The translations under genes and the position numbers were made by a program. Shown one piece after another: positions 15,466 to 59,424 of a stretch of 64,000 bases of DNA. Position 1 is the stretch's first letter. The number at the start of each line of letters is the position of its first letter. This stretch comes from an uncultured Nitrososphaerota archaeon (GTDB lineage Archaea > Thermoproteota > Nitrososphaeria > Nitrososphaerales > Nitrosopumilaceae): positions 128,001-192,000 of the forward strand of contig OY969559.1 in the NCBI GenBank assembly GCA_963701075.1. The letters are read 5' to 3'. Under the pieces are notes generated by a model. The model made no database searches, was not told where the DNA came from, and saw only the letters and a list, made by a program, of their open reading frames with translations.

Positions 15466-15586
15466 ATCCTTAACTTATAAAAGATGCTTCTAAATAAACA
15501 CGCATTCCCAAGTGAGAATGGGTTTGTCAAAATTTAAAATCTTGATTACAATTTTTCATTTCATATTGAAATCTAATTCATAAAAG

Positions 15587-28584: not shown

Positions 28585-29460
28585 TTACTGCCGCTCACGC
28601 ATTAGTGTTGCCATTGAAAATAATATCACTGCCGTGACACATAAAATGGTCCCAACCAGAAATAAAATTATTGCAGCCATAAGCGAGCCCAAAAAGATTA
28701 CCTGCTTGTTAAGATATGCATTAAGGAACTGGTAGCCAATGATGGAACCTGCAATTACAAGAGCTATACCTGGAAGCCCGTAAAATGGAATTGGGTGTTT
28801 TACTGAAATAAATTTCAATGTATTCATCAGTACTGCGATACCATGCGGGACCGGGTTTTGCGTTGACGTGTCACCGTTATAGGATACAGTGATTGGAACT
28901 TCGGCCAAGCTTAATCCCTTGTTTGATATCTTTAGCAAAATTTCAGTTGATACTGACATGCCTGTTTCCGTTGGATGAATTGACTCTATTGCCTGCTTTG
29001 AGTATGCACGAAACCCGGACTGGGCATCACTTACCTTAAAGTCAGCTCCAAAGTTTGCAGCTGATGTTATAATTTTAATTCCCTGCCTTCGGTATCCTGG
29101 CGTACTGGAACTTTTGTCCAAGAATCTAGAACCGAGTACAACATCTACATTGTTTTCTTTTAACGTATCAAGCAAGAGTGGAATCTGATCAGGATTGTGT
29201 TGTCCGTCGCCGTCAATTGTTACCATGATATCGGCATTTTCCTGTCTTGCCCTGTCAAATAGTGTGATGATTGCTGCGCCATAGCCTTCATTTTTTTTGT
29301 GCGATATTACTGTCGCGCCGCTCTGCTTTGCAATTTTTGCCGTACTGTCAGTAGAGCCATCATCGCACACAATTACCTTATCTGCATGTTTTAGCGAGAG
29401 CCTTACCATATCTCCAATTACCTTTTCTTCGTTGTATGCCGGAATGCAGACAAGATTCAT
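28585..29460 (-). CDS. GT2 DPM1-like glycosyltransferase with C-terminal TMs
   Basis: IPAYNEE, DDGSTD, DGDGQH, DAQSGFRAY. Confidence 0.9.
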   Translation of the reverse strand: MNLVCIPAYNEEKVIGDMVRLSLKHADKVIVCDDGSTDSTAKIAKQSGATVISHKKNEGYGAAIITLFDRARQENADIMVTIDGDGQHNPDQIPLLLDTLKENNVDVVLGSRFLDKSSSTPGYRRQGIKIITSAANFGADFKVSDAQSGFRAYSKQAIESIHPTETGMSVSTEILLKISNKGLSLAEVPITVSYNGDTSTQNPVPHGIAVLMNTLKFISVKHPIPFYGLPGIALVIAGSIIGYQFLNAYLNKQVIFLGSLMAAIILFLVGTILCVTAVILFSMATLMRERQ

Positions 29461-30348
29461 ATCTTGAAAAGATTCTGCACCCACTCTTCTAATTTAGTTT
29501 CCGGTTCCCAACCAAGTAATCTTTTAGCTAAAGAGATATCAGCCTGACTTGCCCTCACGTTTCCCTCCGGTTCCTTTTGAAATATTGGCTCTAGGTTCTT
29601 TTTTGAGTATTTTATGAAAAGATTAGCTGAGATCAAGAATTGAGGTGGTAGTACCAGAACCGATATTGATGAAAGCAGAGCCTGTATCTTTTTCCATCGC
29701 AGATATCGTTGCACGTACTACATCTCCAACGAAGACAAAGTCTCGCAGCTGTTGACCGTCGCCATCTATTACCGGCGGCTTGTTTGCAATTATGTTTTGG
29801 TAAAATCTAGATATTACACCAGATGATGATATTGCCGGATTGTTTCCATATACGTTATAGTAACGCAGTCCCACTAGATCGCATTTGTATTTTTTTGCCA
29901 AGAGCTCGGCTTTGAGCTTTGTGACACCGTATGGGTTTACAGGTTTTAGTTCTGCAGATTCTAGAGTCGGTATTGTACTTGTGTTTCCATATACGCCTGC
30001 GCTGCTTGCAAACACTACCTTTGTGCCAGTCTTCTGCGCTATCTCAAATATGTTCTTGGTTCCATTCACGTTGACATCAAAGTACTCCTTTTCTTTTTGG
30101 TATGATTGTATAACAGATGTCAGTGCGGCATGGTGAAATATTCCGTCCTTTCCTGCAAGTATGTCAAGTTCTGAATCGTTGCGGATGTCAATATTGTGAA
30201 ATTTTATCTTGTCTTCAATACCAGACAAGTTAGAGCGGTTTCCCGTAGATAGATTGTCAATTACATCTACCTTGTGCCCTTGCTGCAATAATAGCTTGGT
30301 AAGGTTACTGCCTATGAACCCTGCACCGCCAGTTACGACATAATCCAA
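29457..30348 (-). CDS. NAD-dependent epimerase/dehydratase (GalE-like), split by +1 indel at ~29626
   Basis: TGGAGFIGS and YGVTK. Removing one base at AGCT 29625-29628 gives 297 codons. Confidence 0.85.
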
Positions 30349-38471: not shown

Positions 38472-38737
38472 TTGGCAAATTCCATAAAGAATTTGGATGT
38501 ATTGGCTTTTCCACCCTTGCCAGTTTCTATTTCCCGCCATGCCTCATGGATTGACTTGAGTGTTTTAATATCGTCCTGACTCAATTTTTGGTCTACCTTT
38601 TTTAGAACGATCAAACCTTTTTTTTCTGTTATGACAAATACGTTTCCATCCTTTATGTCAAGTTTTTTTCTTACCTTGTTTGGTATTACTATCTGTCCCC
38701 TGCTGCTAACTGTGGTGAACATGGTTTCATTTGACAT
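38465..38737 (-). CDS. AbrB/MazE-type antitoxin
   Basis: VSSRGQIVIPNKVRKKLDIKDG. Confidence 0.88.
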   Translation of the reverse strand: MSNETMFTTVSSRGQIVIPNKVRKKLDIKDGNVFVITEKKGLIVLKKVDQKLSQDDIKTLKSIHEAWREIETGKGGKANTSKFFMEFAKW

Positions 38738-38811: not shown

Positions 38812-39339
38812 CTAGTCCTTCAGATACCCCATATCTTCAAGCTTTTGGATCAAAGCATCAAGGGACTCTTGTGGCGTAGAGTTTTCAGTATCCAAAATTA
38901 TCTCCGGATTTGTTGGCTCTTCGTATGGCGATGATATTCCTGTCATGTTTTTTACCTCGCCTGCCTTGGCTTTCTGGTATAGTCCCTTTGGGTCTCTCTT
39001 GATGCATGTTTCCAGTGATGCCTTGATGTAGACCTCTACAAAGTTTGGGATCTCTTTTCTTGCAAGCTCTCGTGTCTCGCGGTATGGGGAGATTAATGGT
39101 ATGATTGTGGTAATATCGTTTTTTACCAACAGCTTGGCAATTTCTATTACCCGCCTGTTGTGCTCCTTTCTTCCCTGTTCGGTATAATCGCAGTCAGAAC
39201 TTAGCGTCTTTCTTAGCTCGTCTCCATCTAGTATCATTACCGGCATATTCTTTGATTTGAGATAGTTTTTGACTAGTCCTGCAATTGTGCTCTTGCCGGA
39301 GGCCGGAAGACCAGTAATCCACATAGCAGGAACTTCCAT
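38812..39339 (-). CDS. cysC: Adenylyl-sulfate (APS) kinase
   Basis: GLPASGKST, LDGDELR, ISPYR, RDPKGLY, GISSPYEEP. Confidence 0.95.
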   Translation of the reverse strand: MEVPAMWITGLPASGKSTIAGLVKNYLKSKNMPVMILDGDELRKTLSSDCDYTEQGRKEHNRRVIEIAKLLVKNDITTIIPLISPYRETRELARKEIPNFVEVYIKASLETCIKRDPKGLYQKAKAGEVKNMTGISSPYEEPTNPEIILDTENSTPQESLDALIQKLEDMGYLKD

Positions 39340-39434: not shown

Positions 39435-40499
39435 TTAAAGTCTGATTTGTGATCTTTCACCAAGTAAGAACTGGTGCTTTTTTGGATGCGTGTGGTCCTC
39501 AATTTCTGATTCACGGGCTATGATGCTGTCTACTAGGTGCACTCTAGCATCAATCTTTGCGCCTTCCATTATGATTGAATTTTCAATGTCACATTTTTTT
39601 AAAGATACATTGTTTCCAACGCTGGCATAAGGTCCAAGCCTTACTGCAGGCCCTATGGTACAATTATCGCCAATTATTACAGGCCCTGTAACAAACGAGT
39701 CTCTGGATATGGTTGTGTTCTTTCCAATTACTAAATTTCCTCTAACTTCTGAGCCGCTTGATATTACAAACTGGTTCGGCGTTCCAATTGAATCCAGCAC
39801 CAATTGGTTTGCATGCAAGATATCTTCTGGCGTGCCCGTATCCTTCCACCAGCCTGTTACCGTATCATATTCTATTGTACCACCACTGTTCATCAAAAGG
39901 TCCAGCGCATCTGTAATCTCTAGCTCGCCCCGCCATGACGGCTTTAGCTTGTCTATTATACCAAATATCTTGGGGGTGAGAAAATAGATTCCAATTACTG
40001 CCAGGTTTGACTGAGGGTTTTTTGGCTTTTCCATTATCTTTTTTATTTTCTTTCCGTCAAGCTCTGCTATGCCAAACCTTGAAGGGTCGTCGACTTCGCA
40101 GAGAAGTATCATTGCCTCTGCACTGGATACTTTGAATTTTTTTGTATAGTCGACCAGTCCCTTTCGTAAAATGTTGTCGCCAAGATATACGACAAACCTG
40201 TCATTTCCGATAAAGTCTTTGCATAATCTGATTGCATGAGAGATGCCAGCAGGCTTGTCCTGGTAAATGTATGTAATTTTTACGCCAAATTTAGAACCGT
40301 CGCCGTAGAACTCTTTTACCTTTTCCGGATAGACATCTCCTATTATGATTCCAATCTCGGTGATTCCCGCCTCTCTGAAATCTTCGAGTGCATACTGTGA
40401 CATGGGCTTGTTTGCAATTGGTAAAAGTTGCTTAGGTCCTGTATGTGTGAGCGGTCTCAGTCTTGTCCCATGGCCGCCGTGAAGTATGATTCCTTTCAT
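39435..40499 (-). CDS. rmlA: Glucose-1-phosphate thymidylyltransferase (long form)
   Basis: GGHGTRLRPLT..PKQL, EKP, RGELEITD, WWKDTG and a C-terminal beta-helix. Confidence 0.93.
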   Translation of the reverse strand: MKGIILHGGHGTRLRPLTHTGPKQLLPIANKPMSQYALEDFREAGITEIGIIIGDVYPEKVKEFYGDGSKFGVKITYIYQDKPAGISHAIRLCKDFIGNDRFVVYLGDNILRKGLVDYTKKFKVSSAEAMILLCEVDDPSRFGIAELDGKKIKKIMEKPKNPQSNLAVIGIYFLTPKIFGIIDKLKPSWRGELEITDALDLLMNSGGTIEYDTVTGWWKDTGTPEDILHANQLVLDSIGTPNQFVISSGSEVRGNLVIGKNTTISRDSFVTGPVIIGDNCTIGPAVRLGPYASVGNNVSLKKCDIENSIIMEGAKIDARVHLVDSIIARESEIEDHTHPKKHQFLLGERSQIRL

Positions 40500-40581
40500 T
40501 TTGATCCGTGTTATGATATACAGCATATTTCAAGGTGCTGTCAAATTAGATTCATAAAAATAACTATCTGGTGAGATCAAC

Positions 40582-41145: not shown

Positions 41146-42021
41146 CTACTTTATCTCTTCTATAAACAGATCAAGGCCTTTTTCTATAGTCATTGGCTTT
41201 TCCTTGAGAAGCGATGCTGCTTTTGATATATCAAGTGACGAATCTTTTGGCCTCTTGGCAGTCCAGTTCATGTCTGCCATATTGGTTGGCCTCAATAGTT
41301 TTTTGTCAAGGCCTAGCTTGTCTGCAACCATCTCTGCCATGTCGTATCTTGAGATTCGTGTTGCCCCCGATACGTGAAGTATTCCCTGAATCTTTCTAGA
41401 AGATATCTCAATTAACATTCTTGACAGATTTGGCACATATGTTGGAGATGTGTACTGGTCAGTTATGATATCAAGTGGGGTTTTTGCCCTGAGATTTTCT
41501 GCAATAAATATTGGAAAACTCTTCTTCTTTGGATGTATTCCGTATGGCGTGCTAGTTCTTGCTATACACCACTTTGTTGCAATCTCTTTTACTGCACTCT
41601 CGCCTTCTAGCTTTGATCTTCCATAATGATCAATTGGCTCGGTATTGTCGGATTCTTTTTTCATCCCATTTTCTCCGTCAAAGACGTAATCTGTTGATAC
41701 GTATACAAGAAATGCCCCTAGCTTTGTTGCCTGCTCAGCTATGATTGCAGTTGACTTGGAATTAATCTTTGTAGCAAGATCTTTTTGTGTCTCGCACAGG
41801 TCAACATTTGTCATTGCAGCCAGATGAATTATCACATCGGGCTTGGTTGACTCTACAACCTTGATGATAGCGTCTTGGCTTGTCAGGTCAAGCTGCGTTG
41901 CAATTCCATCTTCTGGCTTTGAATTATTGTAACAGGAATAGACGTGTGTGTATGATTGTAGAAGGTCCTTTACGACCTGCCTTCCTACAAGACCTGCTGA
42001 ACCTGTTACTAGAAATTTCAT
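41146..42021 (-). CDS. rmlD: dTDP-4-dehydrorhamnose reductase
   Basis: TGSAGLVG, STDYVFDG, YGRSK, DQYTSPT, AKRP. Confidence 0.93.
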   Translation of the reverse strand: MKFLVTGSAGLVGRQVVKDLLQSYTHVYSCYNNSKPEDGIATQLDLTSQDAIIKVVESTKPDVIIHLAAMTNVDLCETQKDLATKINSKSTAIIAEQATKLGAFLVYVSTDYVFDGENGMKKESDNTEPIDHYGRSKLEGESAVKEIATKWCIARTSTPYGIHPKKKSFPIFIAENLRAKTPLDIITDQYTSPTYVPNLSRMLIEISSRKIQGILHVSGATRISRYDMAEMVADKLGLDKKLLRPTNMADMNWTAKRPKDSSLDISKAASLLKEKPMTIEKGLDLFIEEIK

Positions 42022-42123
42022 CTTCGATTCACTCCATACCATAATCAAAAAACATGTTTTATTTCTTGTCTACGAGTTGTTTTGATGTGTTATTTCTTGT
42101 GTTTTGTTTGAATGCTAATCTTA

Positions 42124-43403
42124 GGTTCTGTCAACTTGATGGCTCATGGCAGGCATTGTAAACTTCTTGAGATATATCACAATTACCTGCTCTTTTAAGA
42201 AGATCAAAGATATCAAAAGCCTACCGTGTTATCAGTCAAATGTGTAACACAGAACCATCGCTGTGCCGAGATTGTACCAGTGATGAAGGATTTCAGGTCT
42301 GTTGTAAACGATGCAATAAAGCTGGGTATCGAACATAACATTACTTCGAGATTTAAACTACGAAGCCTGGTCTATCCAAGGTTTAACAAGATGATGTATT
42401 CTGGATATGTCTATACCGCAATTTGGAAGGCTTGTGCCATGCTCAAAAACTATCGCAGAACAAAAAAGAAGAATGCTCATGCCAGGATACCTGTCATGAA
42501 AAGTCACATCCTTGTAATTGATAACCAGAGATACGAGATAATCCACAACCATCTCAAGTTTCCAGTCAGGCCTAGGCAGTTTGTATACATTCCTCTCAAT
42601 CACTACGTTTGTAAAATTTTACTGCAACCAGGTCTGAAACTTGGTGAGGTTACATTAACTGAAGAAAAACTCTTCATATCTTATACAAAAGTGATATCCA
42701 AAAAGGAGCCAAAGGGATACATTGGAATTGACATGAACCTTGAGAACGCAACTGGCACAGATGAAAGCGGCACCACTACAATAGTAGACACATCTGATAT
42801 TGTATCAATGAAAGCAAAATACAGAGATGTACTGTCGCACTTTACAAGAAATGATGCCAAGATACAAAAGAGACTCAAACAAAAATATGGCAAGAAACAA
42901 AAAAACAAAGAAGATACATTCCTGCACCAGAAATCAAAGGAGATTGTATCACAAGGCAGGCAGGTCATAATGGAGAATCTCACCGGAATAAGAAGATTGT
43001 ACAGAAAAGGAAATGGTCAGGGAAAAAGGTTTAGGTTCAGACTAAACTCGTGGTCAAGATTCAAGTTGCAAAAGATGATAGAGTACAAGTCAGTTGATTG
43101 TAACGGCCTTGAAGTGATTTACATAAAACCAAATGGGACTTCATCGAGGTGTGCGACATGTGGGTCAAAACTAGTACCCGAAGAGCACCGAATGATGAGA
43201 TGTCCCTCCTGTCGTGTTACCACAGACAGGGACAAAAATGCCAGCAAGAATATTCTGGCTAGAGGCTTGGCAATGCTGGAACAGAAAGAACCAGCACGGT
43301 TCGAGCCTGACGCAGTGCAAGGTGAAGCGATGAAGCAGTTCAAAGATGTGGAGCAGATTGCACCGAGTCTACTTGTTGGACGAGCCATCAAGTTGACAGA
43401 ACC
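42124..43403 (+). mobile_element. Non-autonomous TnpB element 2 with perfect 22-bp TIRs and target-site duplication
   Basis: GGTTCTGTCAACTTGATGGCTC at 42124-42145, inverted at 43382-43403. Flanks are TAATCTTA and TAATCTTG. Confidence 0.9.
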
Positions 43404-43416
43404 TAATCTTGTGTGA
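42226..43416 (+). CDS. tnpB: TnpB (Cas12f-like) RNA-guided nuclease
   Basis: GIDMN, IMENL, CATC..CPSC, DRDKNASKNI. Confidence 0.92.
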   Translation: MLSVKCVTQNHRCAEIVPVMKDFRSVVNDAIKLGIEHNITSRFKLRSLVYPRFNKMMYSGYVYTAIWKACAMLKNYRRTKKKNAHARIPVMKSHILVIDNQRYEIIHNHLKFPVRPRQFVYIPLNHYVCKILLQPGLKLGEVTLTEEKLFISYTKVISKKEPKGYIGIDMNLENATGTDESGTTTIVDTSDIVSMKAKYRDVLSHFTRNDAKIQKRLKQKYGKKQKNKEDTFLHQKSKEIVSQGRQVIMENLTGIRRLYRKGNGQGKRFRFRLNSWSRFKLQKMIEYKSVDCNGLEVIYIKPNGTSSRCATCGSKLVPEEHRMMRCPSCRVTTDRDKNASKNILARGLAMLEQKEPARFEPDAVQGEAMKQFKDVEQIAPSLLVGRAIKLTEPNLV

Positions 43417-43713
43417 CTCGTCAGCAATCTTTTGCGAGATGTAATCAACATTTTTTCGCATGCCCTGAACTACTGGACTGTCCATATTAATCGAGTAAAG
43501 CTTGGCGTTTGCGATCTTCCGGTTTACCCTAATCATTCCAAATTCAACGAGATTGTCAAAGTACTTGTAAAACGTAGTCTTGCTCATGCCTAGTGCCTCA
43601 ATTATCTCCTTTTGCATAAAGTCATTTTTTGGAAAGTCCATAAGATAAGACAGGATCTTCATCTGGGGCGAGCTGCCATAGGCCCTAAGAAGAAGGGGAG
43701 ATGATTCCGACAT
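43369..43713 (-). CDS. Winged-helix protein, 3' end interrupted by the TnpB element
   Basis: KILSYL...EIIEALGMSKTTFY...GMIRVNRKIANAKLYSIN. The original tail (KISIQTKHKK*) lies left of the element at ~42090-42122. Confidence 0.75.
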   Translation of the reverse strand: MSESSPLLLRAYGSSPQMKILSYLMDFPKNDFMQKEIIEALGMSKTTFYKYFDNLVEFGMIRVNRKIANAKLYSINMDSPVVQGMRKNVDYISQKIADESHKIRFCQLDGSSNK

Positions 43714-44536: not shown

Positions 44537-44857
44537 TCAATAGCCAAATCTCTTATTGTATTTTTCATGATCGAATAATTCCATTAAAAGGGCTTTTTTC
44601 TCATTGTGTATTGCAGTTATACCATAAATCAAACGCCAATGGCCGGGCAGGTCTACCTTGAAGACGGCATTAACATCGTGTCTTTTGAGATAGTGTTTTG
44701 GAATCTGTTCTCGTTTTAGGCGAACCCCGACTATTTTATCACTTTTCAAATTACTAATGATCTCTTTTACAACCTTGTACAACGCATCATCTTTGTCAAG
44801 TGCATCATAGACAGGCATAAAGTCATCAGGATCTCCTCCTACTTCCATTCCCATCAC
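44537..44857 (-). CDS. RelE-like putative toxin
   Basis: IPKHY...FKVDLPGHWRLIY...DHEKYNKRFGY. Confidence 0.65.
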   Translation of the reverse strand: MMGMEVGGDPDDFMPVYDALDKDDALYKVVKEIISNLKSDKIVGVRLKREQIPKHYLKRHDVNAVFKVDLPGHWRLIYGITAIHNEKKALLMELFDHEKYNKRFGY

Positions 44858-45486: not shown

Positions 45487-45807
45487 TTACCTGCTCTTGA
45501 TCTTTTCAATCACACTGTCCATCTTTGACGCGCTTTCTGCTTCTATTACCCTCTTGATGCCGTACTCTTTTAGTTTCTCCTTGAATTCTATTATGCCAAC
45601 ATCTGCAATCTCGGCTGCCTTGCCAAGGGTGACCTCTCCCTTTTTGTATAGTCCCACTGCAGCTGCAAGTCTTAGGTTCTTTTTATTGCTGAACATGTAT
45701 CTGAGGGCGTCCTTGACAACATCGGACTTGCTTGAATAATACCCTGATTTGACCAGCTCGTCTATTTCCTTCTTGACTATTTCTGGCAGGTTGTAGCTTG
45801 AAGGCAT
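45487..45807 (-). CDS. RHH + UPF0175 antitoxin
   Basis: ELVKSGYYSSKSDVVKDALR and LYKKGEVTLGKAAEIA. Confidence 0.85.
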   Translation of the reverse strand: MPSSYNLPEIVKKEIDELVKSGYYSSKSDVVKDALRYMFSNKKNLRLAAAVGLYKKGEVTLGKAAEIADVGIIEFKEKLKEYGIKRVIEAESASKMDSVIEKIKSR

Positions 45808-45913: not shown

Positions 45914-46912
45914 TTACCAGTTTACAGTCCAGGGTTGGGGATGAAGTGTCTTTTCATCTGCAAGTGGCTCCCACCAAGACTTGTTGTTTTGATACCATGA
46001 TACGGTTTCCTGCAATGCTTGGTCAAACTGGTATCTAGGCTTCCATCCCGTTGCCTTCATTATTTTCGATGCATCAATGGAATACCTCTTGTCGTGTCCC
46101 GGCCTGTCGCCTACGTTTTCTATGATATCAAGTGGTTTTTTCATCTGGTTGAGTATTTTTTCAACTATGATTCTGTTTGTAATCTCGTTCCATGCTGTGA
46201 TGTTATAGACCTCGCCTGACTTGCCCTTTTCTATTAGCTCGTCAATTGCCTGTACATGGTCAAGAACATAGATCCAGCTTCTGATCTGGTTTCCTGAACC
46301 ATAGAGTGGAACTTTGAGGTTCTTGGAAGCTCGAATTATTGTCTTTGGGATTAGCTTCTCTGGAAATTGATTAGGTCCAAAGTTGTTGGTGCATCTTGTA
46401 GTGATGCATTTTATGCCGTATGTCCTATGGTAAGATTCCACTAGGAGATCAGCTGATGCCTTTGTGGCTGAATAGGGATTGCTTGGCTTGAGGATATCGT
46501 GCTCTGTAAATGATTCCTTGTTCTCTGCATCGCCGTAAATCTCGTCAGTTGATACATGTATGAACAGCTTGTCGTGTCTTCTTGCTGCCTCTAGGATGGA
46601 ATATGTTCCCAAGACATTTGTCTCTATGAATGGTTTTGGGTTTGATATGGAACGGTCAACGTGGGTCTCTGCTGCAAAGTTTACTATCACATCTGATTCC
46701 TTTGCAAGTTTGTTTATGTTATCTTGCGATCTGATGTCGTCTTTGATGAAAGAATAATTTGGATTCTTTTCTACCTCTTTTAGGTTTTCTAAATTGGAAC
46801 CAATTGTCAGGCTGTCAAGATTTACTATGGTATCTTTTGGATTATTTTTAAGGTGGTTTCTGATATGCGCACTTCCAATAAAGCCTGCCCCGCCACAAAC
46901 TAGAAGTTTCAC
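45914..46912 (-). CDS. rmlB: dTDP-glucose 4,6-dehydratase
   Basis: GGAGFIGS, AAETHVDRSI, STDEIYG, PYSATKA, DRPGHDKRY. Confidence 0.95.
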   Translation of the reverse strand: MKLLVCGGAGFIGSAHIRNHLKNNPKDTIVNLDSLTIGSNLENLKEVEKNPNYSFIKDDIRSQDNINKLAKESDVIVNFAAETHVDRSISNPKPFIETNVLGTYSILEAARRHDKLFIHVSTDEIYGDAENKESFTEHDILKPSNPYSATKASADLLVESYHRTYGIKCITTRCTNNFGPNQFPEKLIPKTIIRASKNLKVPLYGSGNQIRSWIYVLDHVQAIDELIEKGKSGEVYNITAWNEITNRIIVEKILNQMKKPLDIIENVGDRPGHDKRYSIDASKIMKATGWKPRYQFDQALQETVSWYQNNKSWWEPLADEKTLHPQPWTVNW

Positions 46913-47002: not shown

Positions 47003-48411
47003 TTATTTTTCACTTGATTTTTTCATTTTATCAACGATATCATCATACTTCCTAAGTAATCTCCAAGTAAAACTTTGATGTATATCATCTAACGAGGATT
47101 GCAAGCTGGTGATTTGTAGATCTTTATCTGCAATAGCTTTGTTATAGTTCTCTAACGAGGATTGCAAGCTGGTGATTTGTAGATCTTTATCGGTAATAGC
47201 TTTGTTATAGTTCTCTAACGAGGATTGCAAGCTGGTGATTTGTAGATCTTTATCGGTAATAGACTTTGTTATAGTTCTCTAACGAGGATTGCAAGACTGG
47301 TGATTTGCAGATCTTTATCGGTAATAGCTTTGTTATAGTTCTCTAACGAGGATTGCAGACTGGTGATTTGCAGATCTTTATCGGTAATAGCTTTGTTATA
47401 GTTCTCTAACGAGGATTGCAAGCTGGTGATTTGCAGATAAAGATCTGCAATAGCTTTGTTATAATACATAAGTAGCCTCAGTAAACGTTCTAATGAGTCG
47501 TTTTGTGTGAATTGAATTACCTTTGTCGATAAAAACTCAGATTGCTCTGTGGAATTTGATAGATAGTATTTCTTAACATCATAACCTAATTTTATCATCA
47601 ATTCACCAGTTATCTTGATGATTTCTGAAATCTCCTCCTTTGAGAGGTATTCAGAATATTGATTTAGTGAAGATGTATGAATTGGTAATCTTGGATCAGT
47701 TTTTCCAATTGCGAGTCCCGTTTCATCTAATTCCGGATGAAGAAGTTTTTCATGTTTTAGAACCGCATCTTCCCAAGATACATCCAAGAAATTCAAAATG
47801 GTAGATATGGTAGGAATGGGTTTTGTAACGAGATTCTCGTAAAACACCAGAATTATCTGAGATGTCTTATTTGCATAATTGTAATATGATGATGTTTTTA
47901 TTTTCCAATATATTGCTCCTGCCACAGTTGCCTTAAATTTCGTGTTTTCAAGCAATCGAATCTCTTCGCGATAGATATTATCAAAGTCTGGAATAGTTTT
48001 TCTCCAAAAGTCGATAGTGCTTTCAGCCCATATTTCTAACCAAGATTTACTTCCCTGATCCAATTTTTTCATAGAAGCAATAGTATCCAGTGGATTTCTG
48101 ACCAAGAAGATCATAGGAATATTACTATAATGGTTCACCATTCCCAGAAAATCTGCTCCAGCATCTGCAATAAATGGTTCTAAGAATTGTTCTGTGATTC
48201 TGGGAGTTTTAAACCCCAACCACTTTTTTGCTTGATTAATCTTTAATTCTTTATTCAATAATTCAGTTTCTCTAAGAATAGAATAAGATCTTAATTCATC
48301 AACACATGAAATCATTGAGTGACTTTCCAAAACTAGTCGCATTAATGTAGTGCCACTTCTCTGACAGCCAATAATGAAAAATATTTTGGGAAGATTTTTT
48401 TCTATCAACAT
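47003..48411 (-). CDS. Sulfotransferase fused to tandem-repeat coiled coil (two +1 indels in the repeat)
   Basis: GCQRSGTT PAPS loop, RNPLD..AS, YENLV, six 21-aa repeats, tail QSFTWRLLRKY. Removing 2 bases gives 469 codons. Confidence 0.85.
47088..47463 (-). repeat. 6 x 63-bp coding tandem repeat (YNKAITDKDLQITSLQSSLEN)
   Basis: Units start at 47088, 47151, 47214, 47278, 47342 and 47405. Confidence 0.93.
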
Positions 48412-48568: not shown

Positions 48569-49126
48569 TTATTCATAGACAAAATTGTTGTCTGCATTTT
48601 TTAAGGTAGGTAATTGCAGATCCTTTTTTATCATGATTGGCTTGTCTGTTGGCCACTTGATAGCTATGTCTTGATCGTTCCAGAGTATTCCTCTCTCATG
48701 CTCTGGAGAATATTCAGAGTTTACCTTGTAGAGTACGTCTGCTTTCTCACTTGTCACGCAAAATCCATGTGCAAAGCCCTCTGGGATATACAGTAGGTTA
48801 TGATTTTTGTCTGAAAGTATCTGGCTTACCCATCTTCCATATGTGGGCGAGCCTTTGCGGATATCAACTACAACATCAAATATTTCCCCTCTTGTTACCA
48901 TCACTAGCTTTGCCTGTGCTTTTGGATCCTTTTGATAATGCAGTCCTCGTATGACTCCTTTGACTGAATGGGAATAATTGTCTTGAACGAATTTTGTGTT
49001 TATTCCGTTTGCGCTGAAAATAGACTCTTTGAAGCTCTCCATGAAAAGGCCTCTCTCGTCTGAAAATGCTCTAGATTCCACAAGTATCACTTCAGGAATG
49101 CTTAGTTTTTTGAATCCAAATGGCAT
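48569..49126 (-). CDS. rmlC: dTDP-4-dehydrorhamnose 3,5-epimerase
   Basis: DERGLFME, QDNYS.S..GVIRGLHYQ, GFAHGF. Confidence 0.95.
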   Translation of the reverse strand: MPFGFKKLSIPEVILVESRAFSDERGLFMESFKESIFSANGINTKFVQDNYSHSVKGVIRGLHYQKDPKAQAKLVMVTRGEIFDVVVDIRKGSPTYGRWVSQILSDKNHNLLYIPEGFAHGFCVTSEKADVLYKVNSEYSPEHERGILWNDQDIAIKWPTDKPIMIKKDLQLPTLKNADNNFVYE

Positions 49127-49445: not shown

Positions 49446-50744
49446 GTGAAGATGCCAACTGTCTGGCTTACAAGACTGGCAGGTGAGGGAAAACCCACCA
49501 GGATGATTTCAAAACAGGAAGGTGTCATAATAAATTCCAAATTAATCAGAGTTACACATAATCAAAAATACATGTTAAAAGCAAACGTGATTTGTAGACA
49601 AGGTATTCCTAATGCTGCATATTTATGTGCAATAATATTAGATAAAGACAAAAAAGAAATTGATCGAAAAATAAGATGGATAAACGATTTTAGCGGTAAT
49701 CCAGTTGACTATACCATAATTTTCAAAACTTTTTTAGGAGCTGCATATGCAACACTAGGTTTTCGAATAAATACTGAAAACCAAGGGATTAAGAATCTGG
49801 AGCCAACAAGGGACACCTTTGAAATAGAATTACCATCAGTATCTCTTTTAGGATTAGACACTATTGACAAAGATGCCGAGGAACAGTATGATCATCTAAT
49901 TGCTCCTCCATCTAATCCATTGACAGAAGAAGAAGAAAATACTTTAGAAAGAAAAACTGTGTGGGTTTTTGGCTCTCCTCGATCTGGCTCAACATGGTTA
50001 GCTGCAGGTTTATTGAATCATGAACAAAATATTTTGTGGGATGAACCTTTGGTGGGATATCATATCATAAATTTATATGAATGGTATGAAGATAGAAGTG
50101 ATTTTTTCTATTCTACAATGCACAAGTACTCTTGGCAACAACTATTGAGAAAAATGATTCTTTCAAGGACATATTCACAAGCTCGTACTTTAACAAAAAA
50201 TGTAATCATCAAAGAACCAAACTCTAGTAGTGGCGCTGATTTTATTATGAACTGTCTTCCAAATTCGAAGTTACTTTTCTTGTTAAGGGATGGCAGAGAT
50301 GTTGTCGACTCTATGATTGATGCACACAATCCAAATTCATGGAATAGGGAATTATCACTAATGCCATTGACTGATGCTGCCCATAGATTAGAATATTTAA
50401 AAAAATATTCAGAGAATTGGAGATTTTTTACCGAGGTTGTCTTGAAAGCATATAACAAACATAATCCTGGTTTACGGCTCTTAGTCAAATATGAAGACTT
50501 GAGAAAAGATACCGTAAACCAATTACAAAGAATTTATGACTTTCTCGGTATTGAAATTAGTAAAGAAGCATTAGAATCAATAGTGGAAAAAAATAGGTTT
50601 GAGAATATAAAGCCAGAATTACGCGGATCTGGTAAGTTCCATAGGTCTGCAACACCAGGAAAATGGAAAGAAAACTTTTCAGATGAAGAAAAATATGCAA
50701 TGGAACAGATAATGGGTAATACTTTACGAAAACTAGGATACTAG
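49446..50744 (+). CDS. Sulfotransferase with N-terminal beta-rich (CBM-like) domain
   Basis: GSPRSGSTW, KEP, RDGRDVVDS, KYEDL, GKW. Confidence 0.85.
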   Translation: MKMPTVWLTRLAGEGKPTRMISKQEGVIINSKLIRVTHNQKYMLKANVICRQGIPNAAYLCAIILDKDKKEIDRKIRWINDFSGNPVDYTIIFKTFLGAAYATLGFRINTENQGIKNLEPTRDTFEIELPSVSLLGLDTIDKDAEEQYDHLIAPPSNPLTEEEENTLERKTVWVFGSPRSGSTWLAAGLLNHEQNILWDEPLVGYHIINLYEWYEDRSDFFYSTMHKYSWQQLLRKMILSRTYSQARTLTKNVIIKEPNSSSGADFIMNCLPNSKLLFLLRDGRDVVDSMIDAHNPNSWNRELSLMPLTDAAHRLEYLKKYSENWRFFTEVVLKAYNKHNPGLRLLVKYEDLRKDTVNQLQRIYDFLGIEISKEALESIVEKNRFENIKPELRGSGKFHRSATPGKWKENFSDEEKYAMEQIMGNTLRKLGY

Positions 50745-50843: not shown

Positions 50844-51599
50844 TTATGTTCTTATTTGTGATGCAAACTGTCTGTACTTTTCAACTACAGTTTTTGGATC
50901 TCCATATTCCTGAATCCTACCATTGTGTATCCATAGTACATTGTCACAAAGTTTTTCCATCTGTTCTACTGCATGTGATACAAATACAATCGTTTTCCCT
51001 TTCTTTTTAAATTCCATAAATGCGTTAAAGCTCTTCTCCTGGAACGAGATATCACCTACTGATAACACCTCATCTACAAGTAAGATATCTGGGTCTACCT
51101 GAATTGCAGTAGAAAACGCCAATCTGGCGTTCATTCCTGATGAAAAGTTCTTCAATTTTGTATCAAGGAATTTTTCAAGCTCTGCAAATCTGGATATATC
51201 TTCTATCTTTTGTGTGATCTCTTTTTTTGTAAATCCCAGAATTACACCGTATATTATTATGTTGTCCCTTGCAGTAAGTTCTCCATTAAATCCTGTTCCA
51301 AGCTCCAAGAAAGGAATTACTTTACCATTTATGATTACATTTCCTTTGTCAGGACGGTATATTCTTCCTATTATCTTAAGTAGCGTGGTCTTGCCGCTTC
51401 CATTGAATCCTATTATCCCAAGCATCTGGCCTTTTCTTACTGAAAAAGAGATATCTTTTAGAACTGGAAGTTCCTCAAAGGTTCGCTTTTTATCAAAAAA
51501 TGATGTGATGTATTCAAATACAGAGGTTCTTTTTTCATGAAACAGCCTAAATGACTTGGATACGTTTTTCACTATGATGGAATAGCTGTCTTCTTCCAA
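50844..51599 (-). CDS. wzt: Polysaccharide ABC exporter ATPase without C-terminal CBM
   Basis: GFNGSGKTT, FSSGMNARLAF, DEVLSVGD..FQEK. TTG start at 51599 is inferred. Confidence 0.9.
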   Translation of the reverse strand: MEEDSYSIIVKNVSKSFRLFHEKRTSVFEYITSFFDKKRTFEELPVLKDISFSVRKGQMLGIIGFNGSGKTTLLKIIGRIYRPDKGNVIINGKVIPFLELGTGFNGELTARDNIIIYGVILGFTKKEITQKIEDISRFAELEKFLDTKLKNFSSGMNARLAFSTAIQVDPDILLVDEVLSVGDISFQEKSFNAFMEFKKKGKTIVFVSHAVEQMEKLCDNVLWIHNGRIQEYGDPKTVVEKYRQFASQIRT

Positions 51600-51600
51600 T

Positions 51601-52377
51601 CTAGATCTCCTCGACAAGTCTTTTATCTTTGAGCCTAAAAACAAGGTACCCAACTATGAAAATTACAGCTGTTGAAATTATCATATATGATGTTTCAAGA
51701 GCAGTTGGAAGTGTGCCGTAGAGTACAAGGCCACGAGATGTATCAAGTATTGGTACAAGTGGATTTATTTCAAGTATATTTCTTATATTTTCAGGATAGA
51801 TGCCAAGCGTGTAAAATATTGGAGTAAGAAAAAAGCCAGCTTGTAGTGCAATCTGCCAGATAAACTTGATATCCCTAAAGTATACTGTCAGGGGCGACAA
51901 GATAAGAGAGACCCCAAAGGAGAGTACGAAAAGATCTACAAGTAAGAGGGGCAGCAAAGCAATTGTTACAGGTGGGACGAAATGAAATATCACAACAAAA
52001 AAGGCAAATGCGATAAACTCAAAGCACATCATTATAAATGAGGTAAGAGATGAGCTAAGAACTATAATCTCTCTTCTAAAGTAGACTTTCTTTATTATGC
52101 CTGATTTATCAAGGAGACTTGTCTGTCCCATCGAGGTTGCCCTTGAGAACATGTACCAGATTACAAGTCCCAGAAGAAGATAGAGCGGAAAGTCCGGTAT
52201 TGTATTCTTAAATATATTGGTAAAGACAAAGTAAAGGACTCCAAGCATCAAAAGTGGCTCAAGAAAGGACCACAAAAAACCAAGTACTGAGTTCCTGTAC
52301 CTTATCCTAACATCATTGAAGGCAAGAAGTACGATAAGTGACCTGTGGCTCCATATCTCTTCTAAAAGGCTTGACAT
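51601..52377 (-). CDS. wzm: Polysaccharide ABC exporter permease
   Basis: RYRNSVLGFLWSFLEPL, FRDIKFIW, TPIFY, NPL. Confidence 0.92.
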   Translation of the reverse strand: MSSLLEEIWSHRSLIVLLAFNDVRIRYRNSVLGFLWSFLEPLLMLGVLYFVFTNIFKNTIPDFPLYLLLGLVIWYMFSRATSMGQTSLLDKSGIIKKVYFRREIIVLSSSLTSFIMMCFEFIAFAFFVVIFHFVPPVTIALLPLLLVDLFVLSFGVSLILSPLTVYFRDIKFIWQIALQAGFFLTPIFYTLGIYPENIRNILEINPLVPILDTSRGLVLYGTLPTALETSYMIISTAVIFIVGYLVFRLKDKRLVEEI

Positions 52378-52542: not shown

Positions 52543-53424
52543 CTATAATGATCGTCTTGAAGTCCTAACAATACTGAATAGGACAACCGACATTAACAAC
52601 AACATTAAGCCAATCAAAAGTGCTCCAAAAGCCACTAGGGTCAGCGGTATTGAGAAATATCTTGACTCGTTAAAATAAGATAATACCATAACAGAAGAGA
52701 CTGCACCGACTATAAGAAATCCCAATCCCGGCAACCCCAAGTACTTTAATGGATGTTTCAATGCAATAAGTTCTATCAGGGATGCCAGCACCTCAGTGGT
52801 ATGAGAAACAGGGTTTTTCGTGGATGTTTTTGATCCTGTGTTGTACAGTACCGTTATTTTTTTTTCAGTAATTTTTAATCCCTTTTTGAACGCATCTATC
52901 AAGATCTCTGAATCTGACCCAAAGCCATTAGAAACAAAGTTGATAGTCTCTATGGCCTTTTTTGAGTATGCTCGAAATCCACTCTGAGTATCCCTAAAGG
53001 GTAGGTCTGAAGCAATCTTTGTTACTCTATCGAGCATCTTGTTACCGACCATTCTATATTTTGGCATCTCTTTTGAATTATCAAAACGATAACCAATTAC
53101 TACATCATATTGGTCCTTTTCTATAGGAGCTATCAATTTGTCCATTTCTTCTGGTAAGAATTGTCCATCTCCATCTATTGTAACCATTATGTCTGCATTT
53201 ATCTCTCTTGCATACTTGAACAGAGATTGTAATGCAGCACCCTTGCCCAAGTTTTTTTGATGTTTGATAACAGTTGCGCCTTCCTCTTTAGAAATTTCTG
53301 CTGTTTGATCTGATGAACCATCATCGCACACCACAACAATATCTACATAATTTAATGCTCTTTTAATTACATCCGCTATTTTTTCTTCCACATTGAATGC
53401 AGGTATGGATGCTACTTTTAACAT
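52543..53424 (-). CDS. GT2 DPM1-like glycosyltransferase (paralogue of 28585-29460)
   Basis: IPAFN, DDGSSD, DGDGQ, DTQSGFRAY. Confidence 0.9.
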   Translation of the reverse strand: MLKVASIPAFNVEEKIADVIKRALNYVDIVVVCDDGSSDQTAEISKEEGATVIKHQKNLGKGAALQSLFKYAREINADIMVTIDGDGQFLPEEMDKLIAPIEKDQYDVVIGYRFDNSKEMPKYRMVGNKMLDRVTKIASDLPFRDTQSGFRAYSKKAIETINFVSNGFGSDSEILIDAFKKGLKITEKKITVLYNTGSKTSTKNPVSHTTEVLASLIELIALKHPLKYLGLPGLGFLIVGAVSSVMVLSYFNESRYFSIPLTLVAFGALLIGLMLLLMSVVLFSIVRTSRRSL

Positions 53425-53523: not shown

Positions 53524-54825
53524 ATGAGATTAGGGGTTGCCATAGATTATGGAAAATATGCAAATGCTTCCAGTCTACATCTAATTGCAAGAAAAATATT
53601 TTTAGAACTTGGAAAGTTGATGAACAAAAAAAAGACTTTCACTGTATCAGCTTTACTATATGAAAATATTGGCATTGGAGATGTCAATCAACACTATGAC
53701 TGTATCAGTGTACCAAATATGGGAGGATACAAATTTCCTCACAAGGGTATCCTTACTGCAAATAATGTGGTAATAGGTTTGTCTGGAATAGACGAGGTAG
53801 TTTTGGGTCCTGCCGTCTTCAAAAATAAACTAGATTGGGAGAGAGTAAAACCACTCATAAGCAAAGAAATTTCAAATTGGAAAAAAGATGTCAATAAAAT
53901 AAACTTCATACATGTTCCATCTAATTCAGACAAGAAGCAGATGATAGAATATCTAAAAATCCCAGAGGAGAAGCTGCATGTCATATATCATGGTGTAGAC
54001 GGGGAAAAATTCTTTCCACCCAAAAATAAGAATGAAGTAATGAAAAAAATGGCTAGTGCATTCTATTTCCATCGATATAATCCCTATATCATTCACATAA
54101 GTGAAAGTAATTGGGCAAGAAAAAATGTATTTAGACTGCTAGAGGCGTTCAAGATTGCAAAGGAGCAAGGGATCAGACACAATCTCTTCATAATAGGAAG
54201 AATGGATCCCATAGTATATGAAAAAGCCCAACAGATAACCGATGTTAAAATTCTGGGTTTTGTGTCAGAGGAACACTTGGCAATGTTGCTACAAGGAGCT
54301 GATGCATTGATCCTTCCTTCCCTCCATGAAGGTTTTGGTTTGCCACTAGCTGAAGCCATGGCCTGTGGTGTACCAGTGGTTACGTCAAATGTTTTCAGTC
54401 CTCCCGAGATAGCTGGCAGTGGAGGCCTATTTGTAGACCCGTACAATGTTTCTGACATCGCAGACAAGATAATAGAGATCTCAAAAAATGACTCACTTAG
54501 GGATTCTCTGTCAAGAAATGCCATAGAAGAATCTAGAAAATATTCATGGGAAAATGCAGCAATGACTTTGTTGAGCCTGATCGAAAAGAATACCAAGCCA
54601 AATTCTAAAGATTTTGATTTTTTAGAAAGCTATGACATGGCTGCATACCGAACACTTGTTTCAATTTGTCAGATGAAACATGATTTCTATAATACAGTAG
54701 TGAATGACCTTCTAAAGTGTGATTATAATAGAATAATAAATTGGGCGCTTGAGATTGGTTTGAAAGATCCCGATATAAGAGACTACCTTCTACCATTTGA
54801 GGAATGGTTAGTTTCTCATAGTTAA
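53524..54825 (+). CDS. GT4 glycosyltransferase
   Basis: PSLHEGFGLPLAEAMACGVPVV. Confidence 0.9.
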   Translation: MRLGVAIDYGKYANASSLHLIARKIFLELGKLMNKKKTFTVSALLYENIGIGDVNQHYDCISVPNMGGYKFPHKGILTANNVVIGLSGIDEVVLGPAVFKNKLDWERVKPLISKEISNWKKDVNKINFIHVPSNSDKKQMIEYLKIPEEKLHVIYHGVDGEKFFPPKNKNEVMKKMASAFYFHRYNPYIIHISESNWARKNVFRLLEAFKIAKEQGIRHNLFIIGRMDPIVYEKAQQITDVKILGFVSEEHLAMLLQGADALILPSLHEGFGLPLAEAMACGVPVVTSNVFSPPEIAGSGGLFVDPYNVSDIADKIIEISKNDSLRDSLSRNAIEESRKYSWENAAMTLLSLIEKNTKPNSKDFDFLESYDMAAYRTLVSICQMKHDFYNTVVNDLLKCDYNRIINWALEIGLKDPDIRDYLLPFEEWLVSHS

Positions 54826-54859: not shown

Positions 54860-56680
54860 ATGCAGCTAAAGTCAAGATATAGAAAGCTCACTAGACTTGC
54901 ACATTCTTCATCAGGTATGATTCGTGAATTTGGTTTCATTTTTTTCTTGAATACTGCATATTTCGAACTAAAGAAAAACAAGTTTTCAGTATTTTCACCA
55001 ATTCGAGAATTTAAAAAGCCGCCAAAGATCGCTTCACAATCTTCCTATAATCAATGGCTGAAAATTCATGAGATCACAGATAAAATGGAACAGGAAATGA
55101 AAGATAAATCGCAGAGATTTTCAAAGTTAAAGATGGCAGTGGTCATTTCACTTTACGATAGCAACAAGAAATTGTTTTCAGAAACCTTGAATTCCACACT
55201 CTCGCAAATCTATGAGAATTGGACAATTTACTTTGATTGTCAGGAATCTATTACAAAAGAAATTAGAGAATTGGCAAAAAAAACTGACCTTGAAGATAAG
55301 AGGATAAACTTTATGGAAAATAATTTCCAAAATTTTGATTTAGAAAATTTTGATTATTGCATTTTTGTAAACGGAGGAAGCGTTTTGACCAAAGATGCGC
55401 TCTATAGGATTGCCAGCCACTTAAATGAAGAACCAGAAGCTGACATAATTTATTCAGATGAGGATTTCATTGATTCTGGAAAGAGAACCACACCATTTTT
55501 TAAACCTGATTGGTCTCCAGAGACTTTTTTGAGCATGGATTATCTATCTAGCTTTTACGCAGTAAGAGCCGAACTTTTGAAGGAGACTTCATTTAGAGAC
55601 AATTACGGAGATGCTAAACATTACGATCTTCTGCTCAGACTTGGTGAAAAGACAAATAAAATAAGCCACATATCAACAGTGCTTGTAAGCATCAGAGAAC
55701 CAAGATGCAAAGAAACAGATGAGTCCATACAAAGCGCCATAAGATGCCTAACCGAAGCACTCAAACGGAGAAATATCAAGGGTGAGGTAGTAAGGGGTAA
55801 GAACAATGCAAAGGATTGGCCAATTTTTAGAATCAAATACGAGGTAGAAAAGGATCAGAAGGTAAGCATAATCATACCTACGAAGGATAACGTATCTCTT
55901 TTAAAGCGCTGCCTTTTAGCTTTAAAGAAAACAACATACAAAAATTATGAGATTGTCATAATAGATAACAACAGTACCAAGCAAGAAACGTTGTCATATC
56001 TCAAATCTTTGCCCTATACAATTGTACGATATCCAAATCAGTTCAACTTCTCAAAAATGAATAATCTTGCAGTAACCAAAACCTCAGGTGAATATTTGCT
56101 CTTCCTAAATGATGATACTGCCCCATTAGAACCAAATTGGCTTTCAGAGATGGTAGGTGCATGTAATCAAGATGGCGTGGGGGCAGTTGGTGCAAAACTT
56201 GTCCATTTAGATAATACCATACAACATGCAGGAATAGTTCTACTAAAGACCGGAGCAGGTTTTCACCCATGGCAGAATGTACCATCAAACGAGCCAGTGA
56301 ATTTTGGGTTCCTCAATTTGAGTAGAAATTGTACTGCGGTAACCGGAGCATGTTTACTGATAAAAAAAACAGTATTTGAAGAAATAGGTGGATATGATGA
56401 TGAATTTGATTTGTATTACGGTGATACTGATCTTTGCATGAAGGTGGTTGATATGGGGTACAGAGTTGTGTATAATCCATATGCAAAATTATTGCATCAA
56501 GGATCTAGCACTATCAAAGAACATTCCTCTGCCTTTTTTGCGGTGGAAAATCACTATCATTTTGTAAAAAAATGGCCGCACATAAAAAAGGGCGATCCCT
56601 TTTACAATCCCAACCTTGAATGGAATTACGAGATTAACTTGAACCCTATTGAAACAGTCACCACCGAATCTACATATTAA
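54860..56680 (+). CDS. Tandem GT2 glycosyltransferase (RfbC/WsaE-like, probable rhamnosyltransferase)
   Basis: IYSDED..PFFKPDWSP, then VSIIIPTKD, FLNDD, IQHAG, AVTGACL, DPFYNPNL. Confidence 0.88.
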   Translation: MQLKSRYRKLTRLAHSSSGMIREFGFIFFLNTAYFELKKNKFSVFSPIREFKKPPKIASQSSYNQWLKIHEITDKMEQEMKDKSQRFSKLKMAVVISLYDSNKKLFSETLNSTLSQIYENWTIYFDCQESITKEIRELAKKTDLEDKRINFMENNFQNFDLENFDYCIFVNGGSVLTKDALYRIASHLNEEPEADIIYSDEDFIDSGKRTTPFFKPDWSPETFLSMDYLSSFYAVRAELLKETSFRDNYGDAKHYDLLLRLGEKTNKISHISTVLVSIREPRCKETDESIQSAIRCLTEALKRRNIKGEVVRGKNNAKDWPIFRIKYEVEKDQKVSIIIPTKDNVSLLKRCLLALKKTTYKNYEIVIIDNNSTKQETLSYLKSLPYTIVRYPNQFNFSKMNNLAVTKTSGEYLLFLNDDTAPLEPNWLSEMVGACNQDGVGAVGAKLVHLDNTIQHAGIVLLKTGAGFHPWQNVPSNEPVNFGFLNLSRNCTAVTGACLLIKKTVFEEIGGYDDEFDLYYGDTDLCMKVVDMGYRVVYNPYAKLLHQGSSTIKEHSSAFFAVENHYHFVKKWPHIKKGDPFYNPNLEWNYEINLNPIETVTTESTY

Positions 56681-59380: not shown

Positions 59381-59424
59381 GACAGATTATTATGAATAAG
59401 ACAGATTATTATGAATAAGACAGA
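59381..59424 (+). repeat. 19-bp tandem duplication over a start codon
   Basis: GACAGATTATTATGAATAA x2 followed by GACAGA. Confidence 0.85.

Follow-up and report, generated by a model that had tools for sequence, protein, structure and literature searches.

Can an archaeon set the length of its surface glycans with a sulfotransferase mounted on a coiled coil? The question is raised by a gene of an uncultured Nitrososphaerota archaeon (NCBI GenBank assembly GCA_963701075.1), situated on the minus strand of the window, the whole stretch of 64,000 nucleotides of contig OY969559.1 (positions 128,001 to 192,000 of the forward strand) that was analysed. The parts of the gene are, in order, a sulfotransferase domain, a linker, a six-unit array of 63 bp (21 codons) per unit and a tail (Table 1). 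The reading favoured here, somewhat below an even chance, is that of a cytoplasmic 3'-phosphoadenosine 5'-phosphosulfate (PAPS)-dependent sulfotransferase on a long heptad stalk with a C-terminal helix, which would act as a WbdD-like capping and ruler enzyme in a Wzm/Wzt pathway for a rhamnose-containing, sulfated surface glycan of an ammonia-oxidising, Nitrosopumilaceae-type archaeon. Such a coiled-coil-mounted capping sulfotransferase is, tentatively, the single most likely reading, in view of the anatomy of the gene, the shared tail motif and the neighbourhoods and fusions of the family, and a tethered enzyme that decorates the glycan is the main alternative.

A PAPS-dependent sulfotransferase domain had been recognised in an earlier, sequence-only reading of this DNA, and it was confirmed on the open reading frame (ORF) of 380 residues at 47269..48411 by the Pfam families PF13469 (Sulfotransfer_3; E 8e-17, 62.7 bits, cutoff 27) and PF00685 (Sulfotransfer_1; E 1.8e-9, 37.8 bits, cutoff 22). 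An invariant loop, FFIxGCQRSGTTL, starts at residue 11. Across a set of 24 relatives to which the window copy belongs, residues R18, G20, T22, R105, S113 and E39 do not vary, and the window copy retains 31 of the 31 columns invariant in that set; the R18/G20/T22 loop and the R105/S113 pair were taken to be the phosphosulfate-binding loop and the 3'-phosphate-binding Arg/Ser, respectively. The AlphaFold2 model of the ORF had a mean predicted local distance difference test score (pLDDT) of 90.1 and gave 106 Foldseek matches at E <= 0.001, the best of them TPST2 (3ap3, E 1e-10) and the CurM sulfotransferase (4gbm), with TPST1 and heparan sulfate 3-O-sulfotransferases (3-OST) also among them. When a profile of the 24 relatives, limited to the enzyme-domain columns, was compared with PDB sequences, TPST1 was retrieved at 9.7e-19 with the conserved loops aligned; this alignment covered three short stretches, presumably the PAPS-binding segments. 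By family score, conserved residues and predicted fold the head is a PAPS-type sulfotransferase, sulfate transfer itself being predicted.

These structural relatives raise the possibility, judged very improbable, that the enzyme is a protein-tyrosine sulfotransferase of the TPST or RaxST kind acting on a surface protein, such as the nearby S-layer protein, and not on a glycan. The best solved relatives are indeed TPST1 and TPST2, and a candidate S-layer protein gene is present at 22622-26101; however, identity to TPST is low (17-22% in the fold matches, 22-27% in BLASTP rows), the gene lies between rmlC and rmlB, and relatives are fused to family 2 glycosyltransferase (GT2) or methyltransferase domains (proteins P0113, P0138, P0181, P0217 and P0088) and adjoin wzm/wzt.

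The array was delimited by Tandem Repeats Finder with a score of 643, 94% matches and 5.9 copies of period 63. Its units start, on the minus strand, at 47460, 47397, 47334, 47270, 47206 and 47143, and four copies of a 36-nt core of the unit are present in the window, all within the array, against 0 expected (100 shuffles); the array is thus far beyond chance expectation. The proposal that each unit spans three heptads stands, 63 bp being exactly that length. The proposal of six 21-residue repeats requires a correction: the array is real, and its frame is broken by two extra T residues, so that the repeats, NKAITDKDLQITSLQSSLENY and then DDIHQSFTWRLLRKY..., are obtained only when both are discounted. 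Units 1 to 6 measure 63, 63, 64, 64, 63 and 63 nt, and the reading frame passes from 0 to +1 at the first break and to +2, the frame of the ORF at 47003..47230, at the second. In the +1 frame between the breaks, ten codons keep reading LQSSLENYNK. The TAA stop codon of the 380-residue ORF results from the first break. Both breaks fall where one unit subtype, GATCTGCAA (CTGCAA, units 1-3), gives way to another, GATCTACAA (CTACAA, units 4-6), and merging the unit variants GTCTG and GCTTG yields exactly the sequence of the first, GTCTTG. Programmed frameshifting was rejected as an explanation, since the ribosome would have to shift by +1 twice in a row, at sites 31 nt apart; a slippery sequence or a stimulatory element was not seen, nor was one looked for. 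A separate variation concerns unit 1, which at 47430-47445 (minus strand) carries CAGATCTTTATCTG in the place of CAGATAAAGATCT[G/A] in the other units. Between inverted arms of 5 nt the segment reads as its exact reverse complement, a change of the quasi-palindrome template-switch type, which converts DKD into DLY and places Leu where the other units have Lys in the heptad core.

Taken at face value, the two breaks would describe a dead gene, in which the insertions are real, the array possibly expanded unconstrained, and either the tail-less 380-residue fragment or nothing is made. For the window copy this was considered to fall only just short of an even chance; it concerns that copy only and is compatible with either function of the intact relatives. 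It is favoured by the two separate +1 insertions 31 nt apart with an in-frame stop, by the public protein record (P0001), which is the 380-residue fragment, and by another gene of the window in which one extra base shifts the frame, namely that of a GalE-like NAD-dependent epimerase at 29457-30348 (minus strand). In the latter the extra base, GATCTC[A]GCTAAT, is placed near 29627, the ORF of 241 residues stops early and the usual C-terminus (…LGWEPETKLEEW…) is encoded in a different frame, in the ORF at 29457..29717. None of the three extra bases is in a long homopolymer. Furthermore, one TnpB and two toxin-antitoxin-type genes are located between rmlD and rmlB, and the rhamnose operon has therefore been invaded. 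On the other hand, the enzyme domain retains every invariant residue, all three frames are open and encode the repeat consensus, the corrected rod is longer than that of the relatives by a whole number of heptads, the large neighbour genes (884, 1159 and 759 residues) are intact, and the breaks, at a variant merge and a subtype junction, are positioned where an error of the repeat consensus would fall.

A search with the 380-residue ORF returned 78 proteins, one of them the window's own, most of the others stalk-less and of about 275 residues. A stalk and a tail were found in only two of the 77 other matches, P0002 (419 residues, 55% identical) and P0003 (401 residues, 54%). These two, together with P0088, P0113 and P0225, were analysed as protein sequences. 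When 1.84 billion representatives were scanned with P0002, 1574 matches at E <= 0.001 were obtained, and nearly all of the 150 that were listed are stalk-less; its relatives include fusions of GT2 and sulfotransferase (P0138, P0181) and of sulfotransferase and methyltransferase (P0217). The stalk and tail of P0002 reached a best score of 0.81 in the ESM Atlas, with no usable lead. In a scan of genome contigs, with 39 of 80 loci examined, neither the genome of the window nor any locus of a stalked enzyme was returned, and no data on unit number from strain to strain were found.

The two nearest genomic relatives belong to Nitrosopumilaceae (locus L001, from a Nitrosarchaeum metagenome-assembled genome, and locus L002). 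Their stalk-less enzymes are 42-44% identical to the window copy in the enzyme domain, and their neighbours are wzm/wzt, glycosyltransferases, methyltransferases and rml genes. RmlB, RmlC and Wzt of the window are 72.5%, 74.5% and 58% identical, respectively, to those of L001, in agreement with the archaeal origin that had been proposed. Two proteobacterial loci, L023 and L017, have, in this order, wzm, wzt, a sulfotransferase of 273 residues from the same family and a large protein with coil, family 4 glycosyltransferase (GT4) and GT2 modules, with rml genes preceding in L023 only. Wzt of both carries the cap-binding domain Wzt_C (PF14524; 4.7e-15 in L023 and 7.1e-15 in L017), and these loci place the sulfotransferase family in bacterial systems with both hallmarks of capped glycans.

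Beyond the catalytic domain, a low-confidence linker (pLDDT 60-76) is followed in the model by a single uninterrupted helix, residues 303-379, up to the end of the ORF. The model of P0002 consists of the enzyme, a similar low-confidence linker (residues 281-310), a helix of 84 residues (311-394), a kink and a separate terminal helix of 22 residues (397-418). In the hydrophobicity spectrum the maximum is at 3.5 and not at 3.6 residues for residues 303-371 of the window ORF, 311-394 of P0002 and 300-382 of P0003, and at 4.2 for the short second ORF of 75 residues. In the repeat unit the core positions are I, I, L (a) and K, L, Y (d), five of six hydrophobic, and a crude heptad score of our own ranked the sulfotransferase ORF highest among 23 ORFs of the window. 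A complex prediction with two copies of residues 298-371 scored 0.15 against a mark of 0.32, that is, it gave no answer and is evidence neither way. The stalk is a predicted long single helix of 3.5 periodicity, which may self-associate.

From a conserved start, S-[LF]-x-R-W, to the tail Trp there are exactly 87 residues without gaps in P0002 and P0003, which are identical at 37 of 88 positions (42%) in the rod span and at 184 of 274 in the enzyme domain. According to the abstract of PMC5082667, a spacer coiled coil is recognised by a length that is kept while its sequence diverges, and the comparison of these two sequences suggests that rod length behaves like a spacer. Over the matching span the corrected window rod has 143 codons, 56 more, which is exactly 8 heptads, a multiple with a chance expectation of 1 in 7 and drawn from three sequences only. 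The window unit KEDQIANLQSSL aligns with DKDLQITSLQSSL, the last segment before the tail in P0002 and P0003, whose stalks are non-repetitive, and therefore the array appears to have arisen by duplication of that segment.

The amphipathic tail QSFTWRLLRKY described previously is present and is encoded in the ORF of 75 residues. It forms a predicted short helix with a moderate hydrophobic moment (0.53 for 18 residues, 0.86 in the best 11-mer), and aligns with the tails of P0002 (HNSFAWKLLWKY) and P0003 (KNSTSWKILQII) and also with those of P0088 and P0113. Among 224 proteins scanned, the motif S-x-[STA]-W-[RKQ]-[LI] beyond residue 250 was found only in these four proteins, a further match at residue 3 of P0136 not being at a rod end. 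P0088 is composed of sulfotransferase, methyltransferase, coil and tail (LESTLNAIYHTRAWQLARRYW); P0113 of sulfotransferase, coil, methyltransferase, coil, MTSTLGWRLLSLY and GT2; and P0225 of methyltransferase, a coil of about 270 residues, TSTLGWRLLSLYGPIKYR, GT4 and GT2. The motif likewise ends the rod in L023:10810-13878, a coil of AERDSAM heptad repeats followed by SASWRLTRPLRFVARLFR (SASWRLTRPLR), GT4 and GT2, and in L017:10795-14328, where the rod ends in SLSWRLTMPLRLIARIFR (SLSWRLTMPLR), again before GT4 and GT2. The AERDSAM array is a second, independent repeat-encoded stalk, in this case in a coil and glycosyltransferase protein.

A profile of the five tails, run against the longer proteins, retrieved the four proteins of the other rows of its alignment and one new protein, P0225 (E 6.9e-3), a match driven by near-identity to P0113 and not by the archaeal tails; the Pfam search of the tail gave chance-level matches only. 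The link between the archaeal tail and the bacterial motif is suggestive, being a short alignment with two invariant columns, which is not proof of homology. The tail is regarded as a putative helix that may dock on the membrane or on the polymerase.

The genomic context that had been described for the gene, with cysC, rmlABCD, wzm, wzt and GT2, was recovered with Pfam, and a GT4 gene and a second sulfotransferase gene were added to it (Table 1). The genes for wzt, wzm, GT2, GT4 and the GT2 protein of 606 residues are all within 9 kb.

Table 1. Positions of the sulfotransferase gene, of its parts and of the surrounding genes in the window.
Feature	Position	Strand	Evidence or remarks
Sulfotransferase gene, whole	47003-48411	minus	two ORFs of one gene: 47269..48411 (380 aa) and 47003..47230 (75 aa)
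Sulfotransferase catalytic domain, residues 1-280 of the 380-aa ORF	47572..48411	minus	Pfam, AlphaFold2, Foldseek
Low-confidence linker, residues 281-302	47506..47571	minus	pLDDT 60-76, no secondary structure assigned
Tandem array, six 63-bp units (21 codons, three heptads each)	47088..47463	minus	Tandem Repeats Finder
First frame break, one extra T	47293..47294	minus	unit 3 = CAGTCTTGCAA vs CAGTCTGCAA or CAGCTTGCAA in other units
TAA stop ending the 380-aa ORF	47269..47271	minus	frame 0
Second frame break, one extra T	47263	minus	unit 4 = AAAGTCTATT vs AAAGCTATT in all others
Conserved tail HQSFTWRLLRKYDDIVDKMKKSSEK	47006..47080	minus	short terminal helix (predicted), aromatic/leucine face and basic face
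cysC (adenosine 5'-phosphosulfate kinase; PAPS supply)	38812..39339	minus	Pfam APS_kinase 1.3e-52
rmlA	39435-40526	minus	Pfam NTP_transferase 5.5e-58
rmlD	41146-42048	minus	Pfam RmlD_sub_bind 2.7e-73
TnpB and toxin-antitoxin genes	between rmlD and rmlB		Pfam/NCBIfam
rmlB, directly downstream of the sulfotransferase gene	45914..46912	minus	Pfam GDP_Man_Dehyd 1.9e-75
rmlC, directly upstream of the sulfotransferase gene	48569..49126	minus	Pfam dTDP_sugar_isom 3.8e-71
Second sulfotransferase, 432 aa	49446..50744	plus	Pfam Sulfotransfer_1 2e-19, residues 171-430
wzt, 269 aa, nucleotide-binding domain only	50844-51653	minus	Pfam ABC_tran; NCBIfam TagH profile positions 3-241 of 264
wzm	51601-52377	minus	Pfam ABC2_membrane; NCBIfam galactan Wzt/Wzm
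GT2, AglJ / dolichyl-phosphate-hexose type	52543-53424	minus	Pfam, NCBIfam
GT4	53524-54825	plus	Pfam
606-aa GT2 protein, one clear and one weak module	54860-56680	plus	Pfam, NCBIfam
884-aa double methyltransferase with five DUF4214	56709-59363	plus	Pfam
PMT_2 family protein	60386-61951	minus	Pfam/NCBIfam

In L001 rmlC adjoins rmlB, with nothing between them, and therefore the stalked gene is an insertion between the two in the window. The 606-residue protein had been read as a tandem GT2; its C-terminal module is clear (3.8e-23), and the N-terminal one is weak (NCBIfam EpsE over residues 91-176, 2.9e-7; Pfam GT2 at E 0.025). In 11 of 80 loci, full-length relatives of this protein are encoded no more than 10 kb from relatives of the sulfotransferase. 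The 170 N-terminal residues of the second sulfotransferase (49446-49955) gave no Pfam match even at E 5, and a weak lead in the ESM Atlas, CBM_4_9 in 18% of one cluster (score 0.86). If carbohydrate-binding, this N-terminal domain might replace the module missing on Wzt.

Other observations concern the neighbours of these genes. The 884-residue protein contains internal duplications of 171-192 bp at 58035-58521, and a DUF4214 protein of 227 residues is encoded next to it (59411-60094, plus strand). Two TnpB/Cas12f-like genes are present in the window (42226-43416 and 16561-17766, both on the plus strand), as are toxin-antitoxin-type genes for a ParE toxin (38217-38540), a weak ParE-like protein (44537-44857) and a UPF0175/ribbon-helix-helix protein (45487-45807), all three on the minus strand.

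In the mechanism proposed for the capping enzyme, self-association, tail binding, the acceptor sugar, capping and length control are all inferred. The C-terminal helix would anchor the protein to the membrane or to the polymerising glycosyltransferase, and the stalk, of about 143 residues and about 21 nm if fully helical, would set the sulfotransferase head at a distance from the place where polymerisation occurs. The head would be reached only by chains of sufficient length, and sulfation of their non-reducing end would then stop extension. WbdD and related bacterial coiled-coil terminators act in this manner. In the window copy the last 21 residues before the tail (three heptads) appear to have been duplicated in tandem to rebuild the stalk. 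Because it is built of three-heptad units, gain or loss of units would change its length without loss of frame or heptad register. For WbdD, insertions into the coil raise and truncations lower the modal chain length (PMC5082667).

The earlier proposal of a WbdD-like terminator is consistent with the order of the parts, the wzm/wzt locus, cysC, the three-heptad units, the whole-heptad difference in rod length and the shared tail motif; the frame-broken gene, the bare Wzt without a cap-binding module and the absence of a stalk from 75 of the 77 other matches, including those in the archaeal loci L001 and L002, do not fit it. Several further points weigh against a capping function. The gene is not intact in the assembly, in which the two +1 insertions give a 380-residue product without tail. 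No C-terminal extension of more than 39 residues was found in the 39 genome loci examined (of 80 fetched), and residues 285-419 of P0002, used as a query, found only P0002 (197 candidates). Within the stalk, Lys occupies one core position per three heptads and one Leu faces outward, and the 1-in-7 expectation given above also lessens the weight of the heptad-multiple difference. The closest solved structures are protein-tyrosine sulfotransferases, and a glycan acceptor is therefore presumptive; the second sulfotransferase and the 884-residue double methyltransferase are alternative capping enzymes in the same locus, and sulfation evidently proceeds without a stalk in most relatives. Finally, nothing beyond the ATPase domain was found in the translation of Wzt (269 residues), and Wzt of L001 and L002, with 246 and 249 residues, is also short and without a cap-binding module. 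According to PMC11231755, a carbohydrate-binding module is attached to Wzt in all terminated examples. The window system is not to be filed among the characterised capped-glycan systems, because this defining module of Wzt was tested for and is absent.

Several of these data would also suit a tethered decorating enzyme, which adds sulfate along the glycan or on a precursor while stalk and tail serve only for oligomerisation or docking, with neither chain termination nor a ruler; this main alternative was considered somewhat less probable than capping. The stalk-less relatives of 273-277 residues in similar loci of two archaea and of bacteria indicate that the chemistry needs no stalk, the archaeal Wzt proteins lack the cap-binding domain, there are two sulfotransferases in the window locus, and rod length is not kept (143 in the window versus 87 in the relatives). 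Against decoration, an extended coiled coil marks the terminators of the ABC-transporter-dependent pathway (PMC11231755), the tail motif is common to bacterial proteins with modifying domain, coil and glycosyltransferase modules, and the rods of P0002 and P0003 are equal in length in spite of their divergence.

An extension of the capping reading was regarded as improbable: the gene would be a contingency locus for glycan size in ammonia-oxidising archaea, with a sulfate cap and a repeat-written ruler, in which slips of 63 bp (three heptads, about 3 nm) would change the modal length of the sulfated coat and slips of a single base would switch it off, without the cap-reading module needed by bacterial transporters.

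Additional features were recorded elsewhere in the window. At 22622-26101 (minus strand) a protein of 1159 residues is encoded with a partial match to the Kustd1514-family S-layer glycoprotein (NCBIfam 2e-24, well below the cutoff), and it is adjoined by a protein of 759 residues without family (26130-28409, minus strand); they are possibly S-layer protein(s) served by the glycan locus. A larger tandem array, with a period of 66 bp, 20.3 copies and 96% matches, extends over 1090-2369 within the ORF at 1-2463 (minus strand), which is open-ended (at least 821 residues, with a weak MG2-domain match) and probably encodes a repetitive surface protein. The tRNA-Lys(CTT) gene at 15586-15676 (minus strand) is 91 nt long, which suggests an intron, and tRNA introns are common in archaea. 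Three overlapping pairs of same-strand ORFs in different frames, without family match, at 15731-16457, 33002-33659 and 43119-43713 (all on the minus strand), could be further split genes or chance ORFs.

To our knowledge, a coiled-coil ruler is an established means of controlling the length of ABC-exported glycans only in a few bacterial O-antigen systems. The caps in these systems are methyl, phosphomethyl or Kdo groups. A terminator census by Mann, Kimber and Whitfield (Glycobiology, 2019) reportedly predicted new chemistries; sulfotransferase heads may already be among the bacterial terminators that it lists, and the present case would then be less novel. No paper combining sulfotransferase, Wzt and coiled coil was found in the literature search. 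The sulfotransferase head, the archaeal host and the repeat-encoded stalk would be new, while the WbdD-type plan was already known, and this is possibly the first archaeal case of a coiled-coil capping and ruler enzyme. If the capping reading is true, the head adds a new capping chemistry and the archaeal example implies that the ruler strategy crosses domains. The exact three-heptad DNA repeats offer a natural series of unit number versus chain length for the ruler idea, and the missing cap-reading module of Wzt would be relevant to the question of whether export checking can be separated from capping. The glycans of ammonia-oxidising archaea have hardly been characterised, and according to the introduction of PMC12153357 no glycan structure of Nitrososphaerota had been.

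Compared with known systems, the head has its fold and the conserved loop GxxRSGTTL in common with TPST1/2 and the CurM sulfotransferase domain, and differs from them in sequence (17-22% identity), in its coiled-coil stalk, which they do not have, and in its context and fusions, which point to glycans. The stalk-less relatives of about 275 residues, such as those of L001 and L002, differ in being without linker, stalk and tail. A resemblance is also found to the Klebsiella pneumoniae O12 WbbB and O7 ORF6 type. Its examples here are P0225, P0113 and the L023 and L017 proteins, which may be terminators by analogy of their architecture with that of the terminator-ruler-polymerase proteins described in PMC11231755. 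In this type the modifying domain is also N-terminal to a heptad rod that ends in S-x-[ST]-W-R-L, the sulfotransferase of P0113 is of the same family and the rod of L023 is likewise repeat-built; the archaeal protein differs in that it ends after the motif helix, and its glycosyltransferase modules would be separate, as in WbdD/WbdA. WbdD of Escherichia coli O9a and K. pneumoniae O3 has a methyltransferase-kinase head in place of the sulfotransferase and is a trimer, whereas the window protein belongs to an archaeon, has a stalk of six near-identical 21-residue repeats and is accompanied by a Wzt without cap-binding module; the likeness is one of part order. It comprises the catalytic head, the extended coiled coil and the C-terminal region that in WbdD interacts with the membrane or recruits the polymerase, as described in PMC5082667, PMC11231755 and PMC3482155, together with a Wzm/Wzt pathway served by a separate multi-module polymerase.

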